This document shows, one piece after another, positions 44,076-51,622 of a DNA stretch of 64,000 nt (within the stretch, counting starts at the first letter, position 1; the number at the start of each line of letters is the position of its first letter). Both the position numbers and the translations under genes were made by a program. Origin of the DNA: Pirellulales bacterium (GTDB lineage: Bacteria > Planctomycetota > Planctomycetia > Pirellulales > UBA1268); the NCBI GenBank assembly GCA_040397545.1, contig JBBAVV010000022.1, forward strand, positions 4,174 through 68,173, given 5' to 3'. Under the pieces are notes generated by a model. It saw only the letters and a program-made list of their open reading frames with translations. It did not search any database and had not been told where the DNA came from.

Positions 44076-44438
44076 GTGGCAAAGCACCGCATCTTCACGA
44101 CGCCCTTCGCGAGCGTCTATCCGCACTATGTCGCGAAGGCGGAGAAGAAAGGGCGCACGAAGGACGAAGTCGATGAGATCATCCGCTGGCTCACCGGCTA
44201 CACCCGGCGGCAATTCGAGTCGACCCTGAAGAACAAGACCGACTTCGAGACATTCTTTGCCGACGCGCCGCGGATGAATCCGCTGCGGACCCTGATCAAG
44301 GGAACGGTGTGCGGGATCCGCGTCGAGGAGGTCGAGGAGCTTTCGATGCGGGAGATCCGCTACCTCGACAAACTCGTCGACGAATTGGCGAAGGGAAAGG
44401 CGATGGGGAAGATCCTCCGGAAGCCACCGGAGGCCTGA
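44076..44438 (+). CDS. DUF2200 family protein
   Basis: '(M)[41 protein letters not shown]' is the characteristic DUF2200 N-terminus. GTG 44076 is preceded by GGAGAGG. Confidence 0.85.
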
Positions 44439-44831: not shown

Positions 44832-47129
44832 TTACTTTCCCTTCTTCCCCTTCGCGGTCTTCTTCGCACCGCCCTTCGCGGGCTTCGCCTTCGGCTCGTC
44901 GCCGCCCTCGTCTCCCTCGTCGTCCGCGGCATCCCCTTCGACGGTGGCGATCTTCCCGCGCTTGCCCCTCGTCGGCGGCTTCCGTCCGGCGGAGATGTCG
45001 TCGTCGACCAAATCGGCGGCGGCCTGGGTGAGGCCGACCTCGCCCGGCGCGACGATGATGCAATGCTTGCCCAGATCGAGCTCGTCCTCCTCCTCCACGA
45101 TCGGTCGGCCCCGGTCGTCGTAGCGGATGTCGGCCTGGGCGGTCTTCTTCTTGGCCAGCGCCAGGAGATCCTCGTAGAGCTTCTTGGCGTCGGTGCCGTT
45201 GATCACCGAGACGGCCTGGGCCACCTCGCCGAGGTAACGGAGGAAGATGCTGCGGCGCTGTCCTTCCTGGGCGACGCGAAGGCGGCGCCGCAGATACATG
45301 CCGAGGTTGCGCCCCACGGCCTGGAGGGCGAGGCGGATCTCCTTCTGGATCTCCGGGTAGGAGGCGATCGCCTCCTTCGATTCACTCGTGAACGGCACCC
45401 ACACGCTCGCCATGTGAACCATCACCGTCACCGGCCCCGAGGGGAGGCTGCCACGCGACTGGGAGAGGCCGTAGGAGCGCCAGTTCGTGGCGAGGATCGT
45501 CTGGGTGACGGCGCAGGCGGAATGCTGGAACTGGAGCGGCACGCGGTTGGCGAAGCGCAGCACCGACATGTTCGAGCCCTCGTCCACGTTGACATGCTGC
45601 ATCGCGGAGTGGAGCGTTGCCAGGGCGTCCTTCTTGAGCTTCGAGGGGGACTGGCGGCTGGCGAGCTTCGCCTCGTCGAGGATCTTGTCGGCCGCCTCGC
45701 CGCTCATTCCGGAGAACGTTGTCGTGAGGAACTGCCGCAAGCTGCGGGCGTCGCTCTCGCCGGCGATCTCCGTGAGCGCCTCGAGCGACACTTTCTGCGC
45801 CCCGGGCCCGCCGCCGTAGGCCAGCGACGCCTCGATCACGAACGGGTTGCCCCGGTAGACCCCCGGCGGCCGGGTGGCGGCGGTGAAGAACTCCCCCGGC
45901 ACGACCTGCCGCAATCCCGCCAGCAAACGTGGCTCGCCGATCGGCACGATGCAGTCGGTGGCCGGCGGTGGGATCTTGGTCTCTTGGATCGCCTTGTAGA
46001 GGGCATCGGCCTCGCCGCGGCCGAGCTTCGCGCAGCTGACCCGCGTCGAGAGCTTCGCCGAGTCGCAGATCTTCCGGGCGATGCCGGAGGAGACGCGCGA
46101 GAAGGAGCCGGTGAGGAACTGGGCCAGCGTCAGCTTGGTGTGTTCCTGGAGCATCGTCACGAGGCGACCGAGCTCGATGCCGTAGGGATGCGGCTTGATC
46201 TCCTTCGGCTCCGGTGGCAGTTCGTGCGTCGATCGCTCGAGGATCCGCTCCGGGCCGTCGGGTCCCTGGAAATGGATGCGGCAATGGGGATTGGCGATTG
46301 CCGTCTGCTCGAGATACTCCTCGACGCTGCCACGGCCACGCTGGAACTTCGCCTCCATCTCGATCGTCACGCGTGTGCCATGATCGATCGCGTGGCCGAG
46401 ATCGTTGGCGGCCACCCACTCGATGCCATGCTTGGCCATCAGGTCAGCGCCCGCTTTGCCGGGGGGAAGATCGACGCCCTCCCCCTTGCCGTTGAGGATC
46501 TGCGGTTCGTTGGTCTTCGTGTCGATCCGCAGTTCGTAGTAGTGGGCCGCTTCCTTGACGGAGATCTTCGAGATGATCTTCACCGGCTTGCCGGTCGTGA
46601 GCACGCCGTACATCCCGGCCGCCGAGATCCCGATCCCCTGCTGGCCGCGGCTCATCCGCAGCCGGTGGAACTTCGAGCCGTAGAGGAGCTTGCCGAAGAT
46701 CAACGGGATCTGCTTGCGCACGATCCCCGGGCCGTTGTCCTGCACCCCCATGCGGAAGCGCGAGGTGGAGTCGCTCACGGCTTCGATGTGGACCCAGATC
46801 TCGGGAAGGATGCCCGCCTCCTCGCAGGCATCGAGCGAGTTGTCGACCGCTTCCTTGACGCTCGTGAGGAGCGCCTTGCGGGGCGAATCGAACCCGAGCA
46901 GATGGCGGTTCTTCGCGAAGAACTCGCTGACCGAGATGTCGCGCTGGCCGGCGGCAAGGGTCTGGGCCGTGGCACGGCGCTTCGTCGGCGCGGGAGGGGG
47001 CGCGGGGGCCGGTGTCGACGGCTCCGTGTCGGGCTGGTCCTTGACGGTTGCCGTGGCTGGGGCGGTGGCTTTCTTGACCGCCGTGACGGCACTCGACGCG
47101 GCGGAACGGGGGGGGGGCTGCTTGACCAT
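44832..47129 (-). CDS. top6B: DNA topoisomerase VI subunit B (GHKL ATPase + H2TH + transducer) with low-complexity N- and Lys-rich C-terminal tails
   Basis: 'ISVSEFFAKNRHLLGFDSPRKALLTSVKEAVDNSLDACEEAGILPEI' (Bergerat N-box). 'DNGPGI', 'SRGQQGIGISAAGMYGVLTTGKP' (ATP lid). 'MVHMASVWVPFTSESKEAIASYPEIQKEI' (transducer). The C-terminus reads '...KAKPAKGGAKKTAKGKKGK'. Start at ATG 47129; the ORF is open to 47264. Confidence 0.9.
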   Translation of the reverse strand: MVKQPPPRSAASSAVTAVKKATAPATATVKDQPDTEPSTPAPAPPPAPTKRRATAQTLAAGQRDISVSEFFAKNRHLLGFDSPRKALLTSVKEAVDNSLDACEEAGILPEIWVHIEAVSDSTSRFRMGVQDNGPGIVRKQIPLIFGKLLYGSKFHRLRMSRGQQGIGISAAGMYGVLTTGKPVKIISKISVKEAAHYYELRIDTKTNEPQILNGKGEGVDLPPGKAGADLMAKHGIEWVAANDLGHAIDHGTRVTIEMEAKFQRGRGSVEEYLEQTAIANPHCRIHFQGPDGPERILERSTHELPPEPKEIKPHPYGIELGRLVTMLQEHTKLTLAQFLTGSFSRVSSGIARKICDSAKLSTRVSCAKLGRGEADALYKAIQETKIPPPATDCIVPIGEPRLLAGLRQVVPGEFFTAATRPPGVYRGNPFVIEASLAYGGGPGAQKVSLEALTEIAGESDARSLRQFLTTTFSGMSGEAADKILDEAKLASRQSPSKLKKDALATLHSAMQHVNVDEGSNMSVLRFANRVPLQFQHSACAVTQTILATNWRSYGLSQSRGSLPSGPVTVMVHMASVWVPFTSESKEAIASYPEIQKEIRLALQAVGRNLGMYLRRRLRVAQEGQRRSIFLRYLGEVAQAVSVINGTDAKKLYEDLLALAKKKTAQADIRYDDRGRPIVEEEDELDLGKHCIIVAPGEVGLTQAAADLVDDDISAGRKPPTRGKRGKIATVEGDAADDEGDEGGDEPKAKPAKGGAKKTAKGKKGK

Positions 47130-47136
47130 GCTGCTC

Positions 47137-47170
47137 GGGGAAAACCTGGGAAAACGAGGGGAAAACCGGG
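47137..47170 (-). promoter_or_regulatory. Three phased (10-11 bp) GTTTTCCC repeats immediately upstream of the top6B start codon
   Basis: The plus strand reads GGGGAAAACCT GGGAAAACGA GGGGAAAACCG. On the gene strand the array ends 8 nt before ATG 47129. Confidence 0.35.
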
Positions 47171-47412
47171 TTCTTGGCCCGGTCTCAAACCGGGAACAGC
47201 CGTGTCGATGTCTGGGAAGTTGGGCAGAGTATAGCGGCTTTGCGGGGGGCAGTTCTCCGGCCACGGCGACCCTCCGGGGACCGGGGACCTTGCCTGCTGG
47301 GAAGAGGCGTCACAGGCGTCGTGCCGCGACTGATGCGTCGATTCGTCACCAGCCGAAACCCCTTTGGGCCGGTGAAGACCGGCGCACCAATCGACGTTCC
47401 GGAGGTGATGCG

Positions 47413-47763
47413 ATGACTCTCTCTGCTTCATGGCGGCGCGTGCTGCCGGCCCTGCTCGTGGTGGCGGCCGGTGTCTGCGGATCGTCCGCGCTCCACGCGG
47501 CCCCCATCAACCACGGCATCGACGCCCCCACGCCGGACGTCTTCTCCAACTACTGGGTACCGCCGGTTCCGGCCGGTGCCTCGCCAGGTTTCGGCGCCCA
47601 ACTTTACGTCGCCCCGCGGCCGGTGCCGCCGCGAGTCGGCCATACCTGGTACACGTACCCGCCGTTCATGCCGCACGAGTTTCTCTACAAGCACCATCGC
47701 AAGTACGTCCGTCCCGCCGGCGCCACCGGCCTCCGCAACGAGGTCCGTGCCGTCTGGTGGTGA
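47413..47763 (+). CDS. Small secreted Pro-rich hypothetical protein
   Basis: GGAGG (47401) precedes ATG 47413. Signal 'WRRVLPALLVVAAGVCGSSALHA'. 116 aa, including 'VGHTWYTYPPFMPHEFLYKHHRKY'. Confidence 0.6.
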   Translation: MTLSASWRRVLPALLVVAAGVCGSSALHAAPINHGIDAPTPDVFSNYWVPPVPAGASPGFGAQLYVAPRPVPPRVGHTWYTYPPFMPHEFLYKHHRKYVRPAGATGLRNEVRAVWW

Positions 47764-48295: not shown

Positions 48296-49381
48296 TCAGC
48301 AGCGGTCGGCGAGGCGTTCGATGGCCGTCCGCGCCCAGGGGCTGTCGGGGGCGAGCGCCACGAACGTGCGGAGGTGTCTCGTGGCGTCGAGCACCCTCCC
48401 AACGCTGTCGAGGATGCCGGCGAGATGCCAGTGGGCGTCGGCGTAGTCGGGCTGCTGCCGCAGGACTCCGTCGAGGGCCGCCTCGGCGAGCTCGGGGTCG
48501 CCCAGTTCGGCCAGGACACATCCCAGCCCCGTGCGGGCCTCGAGGTGGTCGGGGTCGAGTTCGATGGCGGCGTAGTATCGTTCCCGTGAGGCGGTCAGGT
48601 CGCCGACGCGGTAGAGCAGCTCCGCAAGCATGAACGATACCCGGGCGCTCGGCCCACCGGCCTGGAGGAGCGCCCGGAGCGCCTCGGTGGCGGGCTCGAG
48701 GTCCCCGCTGGCCTCGAGATCGGCCGCCATCGCCAGCAACTCGGCCTCTTCCGGAGGCGCTTCCCCGTCGAGGGTGAAGGCGCCTGACGCGGCGCCATCG
48801 GCCGGCGCGGACCATGCCAGCCCGGCCACAGGGGGGGGGTCTTCATCCTTCAGAGCGGGTGTGTAAAAGCTGAGTTGCCGTTGCCCGCCGGGGCCGAGCA
48901 GGTCGCCGCCGCAACGGAGGCTCAAGCGCCGGCCGTCGACGACGATCCGTTCGAGATCGCGGGCCGCCCCGGCCGCCCCCTGGGGATGGAGGGCCGCCAG
49001 TCGGCTGTCGAGCTCACGGAGACCGAAGCCCGCCCGCAGCAATCTCGTCAGACGTCGGCCCACGACGAGCTCGCCGAAATCGAACCAGTCGATCCCGGCA
49101 TGGTGGTGGGTCGGCTGCAGCAGCCCCCCGCGGACCCAGTGACGGATCGCGGTCACTGGGACCTCGAGCACCCCCGCCATCATCGCCACGGTATGGTGAC
49201 CACGGACGCCAGCCAGCGCGGCGCTGTCGTCGTCGATGATCGCGTCGAATTGGCGCTGGGTTGGGATCACGGGCGAAAGTCTGTCGTTCCCTGCGGTCTG
49301 TGGGCGGCCCGATCCATGGCCTGCCCAGACCGGAACGACCGGGGGAGACAACGAGGGCTTCCCGCGGTCGGTGGCCGCCAC
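48296..49381 (-). CDS. MerR-family HTH regulator fused to C-terminal TPR repeats
   Basis: 'HTVAMMAGVLEVPVTAIRHWVRGGLLQP...FDFGELVVGRRLTRLLRAGFGLRELD' (MerR HTH). The C-terminus 'AELLYRVGDLTASRERYYAAIELDPDHLEARTGLGCVLAELGDPELAEAAL...QPDYADAHWHLAGIL' is TPR-like. The start is uncertain (ATG 49381 or GTG 49270). Confidence 0.7.
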   Translation of the reverse strand: MAATDRGKPSLSPPVVPVWAGHGSGRPQTAGNDRLSPVIPTQRQFDAIIDDDSAALAGVRGHHTVAMMAGVLEVPVTAIRHWVRGGLLQPTHHHAGIDWFDFGELVVGRRLTRLLRAGFGLRELDSRLAALHPQGAAGAARDLERIVVDGRRLSLRCGGDLLGPGGQRQLSFYTPALKDEDPPPVAGLAWSAPADGAASGAFTLDGEAPPEEAELLAMAADLEASGDLEPATEALRALLQAGGPSARVSFMLAELLYRVGDLTASRERYYAAIELDPDHLEARTGLGCVLAELGDPELAEAALDGVLRQQPDYADAHWHLAGILDSVGRVLDATRHLRTFVALAPDSPWARTAIERLADRC

Positions 49382-49414: not shown

Positions 49415-50299
49415 CTACCGGCCAGCGAAGGGACGGCTGCTGATCCTGTCGGCGGTGGGGAAGTCGTCCGGTAGTTTCTGGGTCACCTTGCCGGTGGCCG
49501 CCCATTCCGCGCCGCGCTGGAAAACGGTGATGAACCCGACGCACTCCTGCGACTCGTCGGCATGGCCCATCGGCGTGTGGAAGACGCGCCCCTTGCCATG
49601 ATCGACGACGATCAGCATCGGCTCATGGCGGTTGGTGACATCCGAGCGAGCGGTGGCGAGGATCTGCATGTTCCGGGCCGGGCCGCGGAGCTTGTCGTAG
49701 AGCTCGTCCTTGACATGGAGCCAGACCGGCGGCATCCCCGCCGTGATCGGATGGCCTGGATCGCGTACAATGACCGGAAAGGCCCACTGGGCGCCATGGT
49801 TCCCCCCGGGGCCGGGGGACTCGTCACGCACGGTTCGCCCCGCGTCGTCGAGGTAGACGTAGGGGCCGCTGCGCTCGTTGCGGTTCCCCCAGCCACCGAG
49901 GCCGATCATCTCGTTGTAGGCCGGCCACGAGGGGAACGAGTTGTCGGCGGCGTGGACCGCCACGAAGCCCCCGCCGTCCGACACGTACGCCTCGAAGGCC
50001 TTCCTGGTCTCCTCCGGCCAATCGGCGGCACCGTGGCCGAAGTTGCTCACGACCACGGCGTACCGGCCGAAATCCGGCCGGAAGGAGGGGTCTGGCCCCT
50101 GCGGCGCGTGGGTGACGACATCGACGGTGAACAGGCCCGTCTCCTCGAGGGCCGCCTTCATCATCTTCGTCGTCGTCGGCCAGTTGCCGTGGTTGTTCTG
50201 GCCATCGACGATCAGGGCCCGCATCGGCTCGGCAGCGACAGCCCCCGGCGCGGCGAGCAGCCCCACCATGGCCCATGCCATCATCACCACTTGGCGCAT
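49415..50299 (-). CDS. ThuA-domain (trehalose-utilisation-like, class I glutamine-amidotransferase fold) secreted protein
   Basis: Signal 'MRQVVMMAWAMVGLLAAPGAVAA', then 'ALIVDGQNNHGNWPTTTKMMKAALEETG...FVAVHAADNSFPSWPAYNEMIGLGGWG...VFHTPMGH'. Confidence 0.85.
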   Translation of the reverse strand: MRQVVMMAWAMVGLLAAPGAVAAEPMRALIVDGQNNHGNWPTTTKMMKAALEETGLFTVDVVTHAPQGPDPSFRPDFGRYAVVVSNFGHGAADWPEETRKAFEAYVSDGGGFVAVHAADNSFPSWPAYNEMIGLGGWGNRNERSGPYVYLDDAGRTVRDESPGPGGNHGAQWAFPVIVRDPGHPITAGMPPVWLHVKDELYDKLRGPARNMQILATARSDVTNRHEPMLIVVDHGKGRVFHTPMGHADESQECVGFITVFQRGAEWAATGKVTQKLPDDFPTADRISSRPFAGR

Positions 50300-50344
50300 C
50301 ACTTGGATCCCTCCGGTTCCCGCTATGCTCCATCCCCCCCAAAC

Positions 50345-50378
50345 CATCGCCACCTGTCATCGCCACCTGTCATCGCCA
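50345..50378. repeat. 13-bp tandem repeat x2.6 (CATCGCCACCTGT) between icd stop and thuA-like start
   Basis: Read directly. Units at 50345, 50358 and 50371 (partial). Confidence 0.85.
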
Positions 50379-50386
50379 GACCGAAT

Positions 50387-51622
50387 TCAGGCCCGACCGG
50401 CTGTCACCGTGGCCCGCAGGTTTGCATCGATCGCCGCCAGGAAGGCCTGGGTGTCGAGATGCGCCTGGCTCGGACCGACGAGGATGGCGAGATCCTTTGT
50501 CATCTTCCCCGACTCGACCGTCTCGACGCAGACCCTCTCGAGCGTGTCGGCGAACTGGGTCACCGCCGGCGTGCCGTCGAGTTTGCCACGGTGGGCCAGC
50601 CCGCGGGTCCAGGCGAAGATCGAGGCGATCGGGTTGGTGGAGGTCGGCTTGCCCTGCTGGTGCTGGCGGTAGTGCCGGGTGACCGTGCCGTGGGCCGCCT
50701 CGGCCTCGACCGTCTTCCCATCCGGTGTCATCAGCACGCTTGTCATCAGCCCCAGCGAGCCGAAACCCTGGGCCACGATGTCGCTCTGGACATCGCCGTC
50801 GTAGTTCTTGCAGGCCCACACGTAGCCCCCCTCCCACTTGATGGCCGAGGCGACCATGTCGTCGATGAGGCGGTGCTCGTACGTCAGCCCCTTGGAGGCG
50901 AAGTCGGCCTTGAATTCGGCGTCGAACACCTCTTGGAAAATATCCTTGAAGCGGCCGTCGTAGGCCTTCAGGATCGTGTTTTTGGTCGAGAGATAGACCG
51001 GGTAGCTCCGCGCCAGACCATAGCGGAAACTGGCCCGGGCGAAATCGCGGATCGAGTCGTCGAGGTTGTACATCGCCATCGCGACGCCGGCCGACGGGAA
51101 CTCGTAGACCTGCATCTCCATCGGCTTCGAGCCATCGGCCGGCGCGAAGGTGAGCGTGAGCTTCCCGGCACCGGGGATCTTCACGTCGGTGGCCCGGTAC
51201 TGATCGCCGAAGGCATGGCGACCGACGACGATCGGCTTCGTCCAGCCGGGGACGAGTCGCGGGATGTTGCCGATGATGATCGGCTCCCGAAAGATCACAC
51301 CGCCGAGGATGTTGCGGATCGTGCCATTCGGGCTCTTCCACATCTTGGAGAGCGAGAATTCCTTCACCCGCGCCTCGTCGGGCGTGATCGTGGCGCACTT
51401 CACGCCGACGCCATGCTCGAGGATCGCGTGCGCGGCGTCGATCGTCACCTGATCACCCGTCGCCTCGCGGTGCTCGATCGAGAGGTCGTAGTATTTCAGC
51501 TCGAGATCGAGATACGGGAGGATGAGTTGGTCCTTGATGAACTGCCAGATGATGCGAGTCATCTCGTCACCATCGAGCTCGACGACCGGACCGACGACCT
51601 TGATCTTGCCGGGCTTGCTCAC
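50387..51622 (-). CDS. icd: NADP-dependent isocitrate dehydrogenase (IDH1-type homodimeric)
   Basis: '[48 protein letters not shown]...' and '[17 protein letters not shown]'. 411 aa. Confidence 0.95.

Follow-up and report, generated by a model that had tools for sequence, protein, structure and literature searches.

A likely topoisomerase VI B subunit from a Pirellulales bacterium, encoded apart from its predicted A subunit

The 64-kb stretch of DNA analysed here, which we call the window, covers positions 4174-68173 of contig C22 in a freshwater Pirellulales metagenome-assembled genome (MAG) of 5.14 Mb, 153 contigs and 94% completeness. One of its genes, top6B, is predicted to encode the ATPase (B) subunit of DNA topoisomerase VI (topo VI). 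We conclude, with a probability of roughly 0.88, that the product is a genuine Top6B of a predicted A2B2 topo VI, that its partner subunit Top6A is encoded elsewhere in the same genome, and that the enzyme is likely a decatenase. The protein falls within a clade of bacterial topo VI from Pirellulales that has been described before and is placed in the tree of Allen & Maxwell 2024 (PMC11302465). A preliminary description of the window had recognized the Top6B layout and had implied that the protein was an orphan; the layout stands, while the orphan status does not.

The enclosing open reading frame (ORF) spans positions 44832..47264 (-), and the ATG at 47129 gives a protein of 765 amino acids (aa). 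This start is supported because the ATG is kept in same-genus relatives (MAKQ or MVKQ) while divergence begins upstream of it. The Top6B assignment is borne out by profile scores, alignment, motifs and fold. The protein scores 658 bits against NCBIfam NF003218 (cut-off 274), 485.9 bits against TIGR01052 (cut-off 380.7) and 167 bits against the Pfam transducer family Topo-VIb_trans (PF09239; E 3e-49, cut-off 24). The remaining Pfam matches are generic HATPase_c models plus NFACT_N across the H2TH region. Among solved structures, the best sequence match is Top6B of Methanosarcina mazei (2q2e_B, E 1e-133), aligned over aa 55-212, 249-447 and 518-643. An AlphaFold2 model built from a 98-row alignment has a mean predicted local distance difference test score (pLDDT) of 85.8 and a predicted template-modelling score (pTM) of 0.82, and its top Foldseek matches are topo VI-B of M. 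mazei and Saccharolobus shibatae, with E values from 1.7e-55 (9o0g_D) to 4e-38 and TM-scores to the target of 0.77 for 2q2e_B and 0.88 for 1mx0_C. GyrB/ParE fragments trail at E ~1e-11 and TM ~0.3. The preliminary description had held open an assignment to another GHKL family such as MORC or MutL. Profile searches in Pfam and NCBIfam make no such assignment: no MutL or MORC family is matched, and no domain specific to MutL, MORC, Hsp90, histidine kinases or GyrB/ParE follows the ATPase.

The residues expected of a working B subunit are also in place. The ATP-binding motifs EAVDN (93-97), DNGPGI (131) and GQQGIGIS (162), which we take to be the N-box, G1 and G2, align with the same motifs of 2q2e_B. 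In the transducer, the switch lysine K585 lies within SESKEAIA (from residue 582), aligned with M. mazei SESK, and the long helix at 592-644 is modelled with pLDDT of at least 90. Three DNA-sensing elements of the M. mazei enzyme, the KGRR loop, WKxY and R457, were defined by Wendorff & Berger 2018 (PMC5922973). Mapped by hand through the 2q2e_B alignment, they correspond to R264-G-R266, WRSY at 550-553 and R607. Compared with nine same-genus loci, the ratio of nonsynonymous to synonymous substitution rates (dN/dS) of the Top6B core is 0.03-0.16, and this low value supports the prediction of a working enzyme.

The closest structural relatives frame what is common and what is particular. M. mazei Top6B (PDB 2Q2E; cryo-EM 9O0G/9O8P) has the same GHKL-H2TH-transducer order at ~40% identity (Foldseek). 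The window protein differs in that it is without the Ig-like C-terminal domain and adds a second H2TH domain, a GHKL segment of 36 rather than 10 aa, and disordered tails at both ends. S. shibatae topo VI (2ZBK, 1MX0) shares the fold, with TM-scores normalised to the target of 0.81-0.89; its B subunit is 26-27% identical to the window protein and has neither the insertions nor the tails.

Where is the A subunit? The preliminary description had noted the absence of top6A from the window, and indeed none is found there. A whole-genome profile search, the step that the description had proposed, gives a single PF04406 match on another contig, at C82:15425-15631. The surrounding ORF (C82:15119-16273; 1195-2349 of locus L001) encodes 385 aa and reaches the contig end; by comparison with complete relatives, it lacks no more than about the final 14 residues. 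This complete-looking Top6A matches the Pfam families TOP6A-Spo11_Toprim (188 bits), TP6A_N (54 bits) and the all-beta domain Topo_VI_alpha (35 bits), and its best solved match is S. shibatae 2zbk_A (E 9e-70). It carries the motifs IRGLYY, HVEKD and DNDPWG, presumably the catalytic tyrosine and the metal-binding residues. Its N-terminus is a basic MAKKP...K arm, a feature found throughout the order.

As a side observation, the two subunits differ in their nearest solved structures. For Top6B, M. mazei (451 bits) far outscores S. shibatae (255 bits), and for Top6A the order is reversed (S. shibatae 239 bits, M. mazei 148 bits). The opposite preferences could reflect unequal rates or different subunit histories.

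The distribution of the two genes was scored in 151 evenly drawn Pirellulales genomes, all at least 85% complete. Among the matches listed, Top6B is present in 148 of 151 genomes, Top6A in 145 and both in 144; seven genomes are without one gene or both. A second set of 41 genomes from the genus, family and order gives 41/41 for Top6B and 37/41 for Top6A. Same-genus genomes each have a single near-identical copy of both genes (full-length matches; B 86-97%, A 89-99%), and Top6B of other-family representatives of the order is 61-74% identical. The description of topo VI as sporadic in bacteria is therefore misleading here: a gene that is nearly universal in the order is a vertically inherited trait and not a sporadic acquisition. 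The closest public loci come from freshwater MAGs under the labels Pirellulales, Planctomycetia or Planctomycetaceae. Many records with this gene carry the names 'Candidatus Kuenenia stuttgartiensis', 'Planctomicrobium piriforme' or 'Chitinophaga sp.'; with identities of 78-97% to this Top6B, such names look like errors made at submission.

One could still suppose that the protein is a true orphan, either a stand-alone GHKL ATPase of MORC or MutL type or the partner of some other nuclease, as the missing top6A in the 64-kb window and the unrelated flanking genes might suggest. It is difficult to see how this could hold when an intact Top6A with its catalytic motifs is encoded in the same genome and the two genes occur together almost throughout the order. 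In the own-family clade, moreover, A is as conserved as B relative to this genome (82-99% versus 72-97%), and the B subunit retains its transducer together with WRSY and R607, the elements directed towards Top6A and DNA, with no match to the MutL or MORC families. We regard the orphan explanation as extremely improbable.

The arrangement of the genes was scored by pairing the coordinates of the matches listed. A same-strand B-then-A pair, with a gap of -118 to 2072 bp, is present in 101 of the 144 genomes that have both genes. In the other 43, the genes are unpaired, 7 times on one contig at distances of 55 to 712 kb and 36 times on different contigs, although ten further Top6B matches lie outside those listed and a few of these 36 may therefore be fragments. 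The family of the present genome (f1) has the pair in 0/13 genomes: the genes are on different contigs in 11 and, in two (G017 and G160), 184 kb apart on one contig. Splits occur elsewhere in families f2 (2/2), f15 (3/3), f20 (8/10) and f24 (4/11). Around top6B in 80 related loci (78-97% identity), Top6A is found in none (0/80), and 48 of these loci extend 2 kb or more beyond top6B on its downstream side.

Could the separation simply be an artefact of assembly or binning, with the genes truly adjacent or the two contigs drawn from different organisms? The MAG is in 153 contigs and top6A lies at the very end of C82, which would fit such an explanation. Yet the 72.9-kb contig C22 runs on without a break for 21 kb on one side of top6B and 49 kb on the other, and its neighbours recur in independent assemblies (small2 upstream, DUF2200/ABC downstream). 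Nor would mixed organisms account for the same-genus genomes that each carry one near-identical copy of both genes. The recurrent neighbours, the lack of adjacency in all 13 family genomes and the two cases of separation on one contig argue that the split is not an artefact, a possibility that the preliminary description had raised and to which we assign next to no weight. The separation of top6A from top6B is a genuine and recurrent rearrangement.

The simplest explanation is that this B subunit would work with the Top6A of C82 in an ordinary A2B2 topo VI, in which Top6A would supply the winged-helix fold with the catalytic tyrosine as well as the Toprim fold. Judging from the archaeal enzyme, ATP-driven dimerisation of two B subunits would capture one DNA duplex, the transducer helix would relay the signal to the A dimer, and the A dimer would cleave a second duplex, let the first one through and reseal the break. 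The ancestral top6B-top6A pair, which most Pirellulales still keep, would have been broken before this family diversified, with independent breaks in several other families.

The likely role of the enzyme can be approached through the other topoisomerases of the genome, a point that the preliminary description had marked for checking. The genome has one match to PF00521 (GyrA/ParC type) and one to PF00204 (GyrB/ParE type), and the A-type protein carries the GyrA box QRRGGKG. There is also one topoisomerase IA, for which two matches fall inside a single 984-aa open frame. Gyrase is thus present, and topo IV, which would appear as second GyrA/ParC and GyrB/ParE genes, is not found in this 94%-complete genome. 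PF00521 is matched in 38 of 41 relatives, one of them a closed 6.1-Mb genome, with one gene in each; where two matches occur, in two genomes, they are non-overlapping pieces of one gene, and the three relatives lacking a match are 67-76% complete. With no topo IV beside gyrase and topoisomerase IA, gene content makes topo VI most likely the enzyme that is dedicated to decatenation and relaxes positive supercoils in this cell.

This proposal agrees with the literature. McKie et al. 2022 (PMC8837201) describe topo VI as a preferential decatenase. Allen & Maxwell 2024 (PMC11302465) report topo VI in Pirellulaceae, Lacipirellulaceae and Thermoguttaceae, all without topo IV, describe topo IV as confined to Pseudomonadota and Terrabacteria, and have already proposed the decatenase role for the Pirellulales enzyme. 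A literature search that paired topoisomerase VI with planctomycete genus names returned taxonomy papers only.

An alternative is that topo VI is active but accessory, with gyrase as the bulk decatenase and topo VI reserved for a specialised role, for example in replication termination, budding division or the handling of a condensed nucleoid. Some bacteria manage with gyrase only. To our knowledge, Pirellulales divide by budding, without FtsZ, which would leave room for such a specialised role, and the second H2TH domain and the tails (see below) suggest altered substrate handling. The role of topo VI in bacteria is also unsettled according to Allen & Maxwell (PMC11302465). Against this stand the near-universal retention of Top6B in the order, the lack of a second type IIA enzyme and the very strong purifying selection, which together are better explained by an essential housekeeping role. 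We therefore consider an accessory role unlikely and keep the dedicated decatenase as the preferred assignment.

The gene for GyrA (locus L002; C10:86605-88011 (-)) sits in a 1340-codon open frame. Its product has a long Gly/Asp/Glu-rich insertion between blades of its C-terminal domain and finishes in an acidic, Gly-rich stretch.

One lineage-specific part of Top6B is an insertion in the transducer, 73 aa longer than M. mazei at aa 445-517, which forms a second H2TH domain. The two copies are 26/74 identical without gaps (BLASTP, 42 bits) and match each other in a profile-profile comparison with 99.3% probability (hhalign; E 8e-21, 71 columns). In the model, copy 2 has the same helix pattern as copy 1, with pLDDT 86-97. 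It is exactly 73 aa long in 21/21 aligned Pirellulales loci and in the full-length representative P0123, and 63 of 64 distant representatives lack it, with 0-23 residues at that position; the other one, P0130, has a 76-aa insert of unlike sequence. With dN/dS of 0.02-0.07, copy 2 is as constrained as the catalytic core. Allen & Maxwell 2024 (PMC11302465) described a 'unique alpha-helical bundle' in the transducer of their Pirellula staleyi model; on the basis of sequence comparison, this bundle is a duplicated H2TH domain, while the accessible text of that paper calls the insertion only a bundle. The copies differ in net charge (+6 for copy 1, -2 for copy 2) and at the positions of the M. mazei DNA contacts R263/K268/K308, which are T340/R345/K385 in copy 1 and T469/G474/N514 in copy 2. 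The GHKL domain carries a further insertion, of 29-42 aa in Pirellulales rows; distant representatives mostly have ~9-10 aa there, and up to 35.

Both ends of the protein are disordered in the AlphaFold2 model (pLDDT <50 at residues 1-35 and 707-765). The N-terminal tail is Ala/Pro-rich, as the preliminary description had it, with 12 Ala and 12 Pro and a net charge of +5 in residues 1-53; its length is nearer 50 aa than the ~60 aa given there. It is followed directly by a conserved basic strap, KRRATAQ (aa 50-56), with the order-wide form KRRATAQ.LAAGQRDI. Nearly all members of the order have a low-complexity arm with a basic patch before the strap, and in this genus it consists largely of Ala, Pro and Thr and has few charged residues. 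The C-terminal tail is, as had been described, acidic and then Lys-rich (net -6 over residues 706-744, +8 over 745-765). Over 43-65 codons each, dN/dS is 0.31-0.85 for the N-tail and 0.0-0.63 for the C-tail; the C-tail thus evolves several-fold faster than the core, with dN/dS still <1.

A basic C-terminal end characterizes the family. All 75 complete loci of the family clade (75/75) have a C-tail of 21-85 aa with at least 6 Lys or Arg in the last 20 residues, and in other families a basic C-tail is found in 1 of 14 loci (L102), with 12/14 having at most 3 Lys or Arg. We considered whether the basic tail might be a consequence of the operon split, and this was ruled out: the split families f2 (L096) and f15 (L097) are without it, and the tail is therefore particular to the family rather than an effect of the split. 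A sliding-clamp-binding motif in the tails of this clade was likewise rejected, since the QL[SD]LF type occurs in 0/91 N-tails and 0/90 C-tails. A loose Q..L..F pattern occurs in 1/90 C-tails and in 4/91 N-tails, where the windows include possibly untranslated upstream sequence.

What might the tails do? Binding of DNA is plausible from their composition, and the family C-tail probably adds non-specific DNA affinity or regulates such affinity. Lys/Ala/Pro-rich tails are found on bacterial DNA-binding proteins, for example actinobacterial topoisomerase I and HupB. As those tails are generally described, they have a disordered K/A/P/G-rich end; here, an acidic run precedes the basic cluster. It is possible, though in our judgement doubtful, that the charged tails are instead interaction or localisation signals (for example, docking through KIATVEG) or tolerated low-complexity extensions. 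An IATVE-like peptide precedes the acidic run in 24 of the 75 family C-tails, including this one, and may be a short linear interaction motif; the tails change faster than the core while dN/dS stays below 1; and the acidic run could fold back on the adjacent basic end. On the other side, every family tail ends in a Lys/Arg cluster whatever its sequence, which would be typical of non-specific, composition-driven nucleic-acid binding, and the sliding-clamp motif is found in none. The KIATVEG-type peptide (K/R..K-I-A-T-V-E-G/D) is kept while the rest of the C-tail varies.

Tentatively, these features might be put together as a distinct bacterial form of topo VI, in which the enzyme would be the order's sole dedicated decatenase, the second H2TH domain would alter the sensing or holding of the transported DNA, and, in this freshwater family, the C-tail with its KIATVEG peptide would serve as a self-masking DNA tether or docking module. 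As a whole, this scheme seems to us rather unlikely.

Several points weigh against the reading of this gene as half of a working, decatenating topo VI with DNA-binding arms. The contig end cuts Top6A, so that its last ~14 codons and its downstream neighbour are unseen. For the present genome taken alone, a MAG of 94% completeness, missed parC and parE genes are possible, although none turned up in 40 relatives. The decatenase role is drawn from the gene complement, and topo VI could be accessory. Copy 2 of the H2TH domain, given its charge and its residues at the contact positions, need not bind DNA as copy 1 does. Finally, there is little support here for Lys-rich tails as a signature of nucleic-acid binding. 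In this genome, a C-terminus with 8 or more Lys among the last 30 residues is seen in eleven open frames of at least 100 aa, one of which is Top6B. The other ten make too mixed a set: the nucleic-acid-related ones are L7/L12, L33, a DEAD-box helicase and a Cas protein, next to an M16 peptidase and five frames with no Pfam match.

Table 1. Positions of top6B, its domains and its neighbouring genes in the window
Feature	Position	Strand	Evidence or remarks
top6B coding sequence, ATPase (B) subunit of DNA topoisomerase VI	44832..47129	-	765 aa + stop
N-terminal disordered Ala/Pro-rich tail, aa 1-49	46983..47129	-	pLDDT 38-50, composition, dN/dS
GHKL/Bergerat ATPase domain, ~aa 55-300	46230..46967	-	putative N-box E93/N97, G1 DNGPGI, G2 GQQGIGIS; RGR aa 264-266
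Lineage-specific GHKL-domain insertion, aa 213-248	46386..46493	-	alignment
H2TH copy 1, aa 312-388	45966..46196	-	aligned to M. mazei ~235-311; four-helix pattern in model
Transducer domain, aa 389-662	45144..45965	-	WRSY, K585, long helix 592-644
H2TH copy 2, aa 442-517, within transducer	45579..45806	-	BLASTP, hhalign, alignment, model
Order-wide conserved C-terminal element, aa 663-695 (...DDRGRPI..EE..LDLG..CIIV)	45045..45143	-	relatives, model
C-terminal disordered tail, aa 696-765	44835..45044	-	basic patch with KIATVEG, acidic run, terminal Lys-rich cluster
DUF2200 gene, convergent with top6B	44079..44438	+	170 bits
small1, small ORF with hydrophobic N-terminus	47421..47763	+	matched in 40 related loci, all own-family clade
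small2, secreted-protein gene, 135 aa	47830..48237	+	signal peptide; conserved divergent upstream neighbour of top6B

The genes that flank top6B (Table 1) are those that the preliminary description had named, a DUF2200 gene and small secreted proteins; small1 and small2 have no Pfam or NCBIfam match. The DUF2200 gene sits where top6A lies in other families, and it neighbours top6B in only 7 related loci, 5 of these at 90% identity or above. The position of small2 is far more stable. It lies divergently upstream of top6B in 66/66 related loci with at least 1.5 kb of upstream sequence and in 12/15 Pirellulales loci from other families, and this back-to-back arrangement across the order hints at a shared, conserved control region. 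A conserved domain, ...ALVVPPTAE...WGV...PTP.WPSDT.QFGV..VRGPW, lies at the C-terminus of small2, which in the ESM Atlas falls in Planctomycetota 'hypothetical protein' clusters only. Beyond small2, a 361-aa tetratricopeptide repeat (TPR) protein (48296-49381 (-)) neighbours small2 and top6B in 60 related loci, all from the own-family clade. In closer relatives, the TPR gene is followed by ThuA (49415-50353) and then by isocitrate dehydrogenase (50387-51622).

How does this system relate to those already known? The published Pirellulales topo VI-B proteins of Pirellula staleyi, Thermogutta terrifontis and Lacipirellula parvula (PMC11302465) belong to the same clade and share the transducer insertion, and they too are accompanied by a Top6A partner and by gyrase without topo IV. 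The present case differs in its unlinked genes and its family-specific, acidic-then-basic C-tail. Topo VIII and Mini-A are bacterial type IIB relatives, some of them in Planctomycetes, that are carried on plasmids or integrated elements (Takahashi et al. 2020, PMC7671362). The window gene is distinguished from them by scores above the topo VI-B equivalog cut-offs, by inheritance with the order and by a separate Top6A.

What is particular to this case is modest: the family-wide basic C-tail, the order-wide numbers for presence and splitting, and the conserved back-to-back gene for a small secreted protein. The value is mainly one of annotation, since an automated or sequence-only reading could suggest an orphan or a stray product of horizontal transfer. 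For the biology of the order, the top6 operon has been split repeatedly, and the two subunits must therefore be co-regulated in trans. Basic disordered arms are a general feature of this clade's subunits. As a bacterial model for the contributions of H2TH domains and tails to crossing recognition and decatenation, the Pirellulales enzyme is a reasonable choice.

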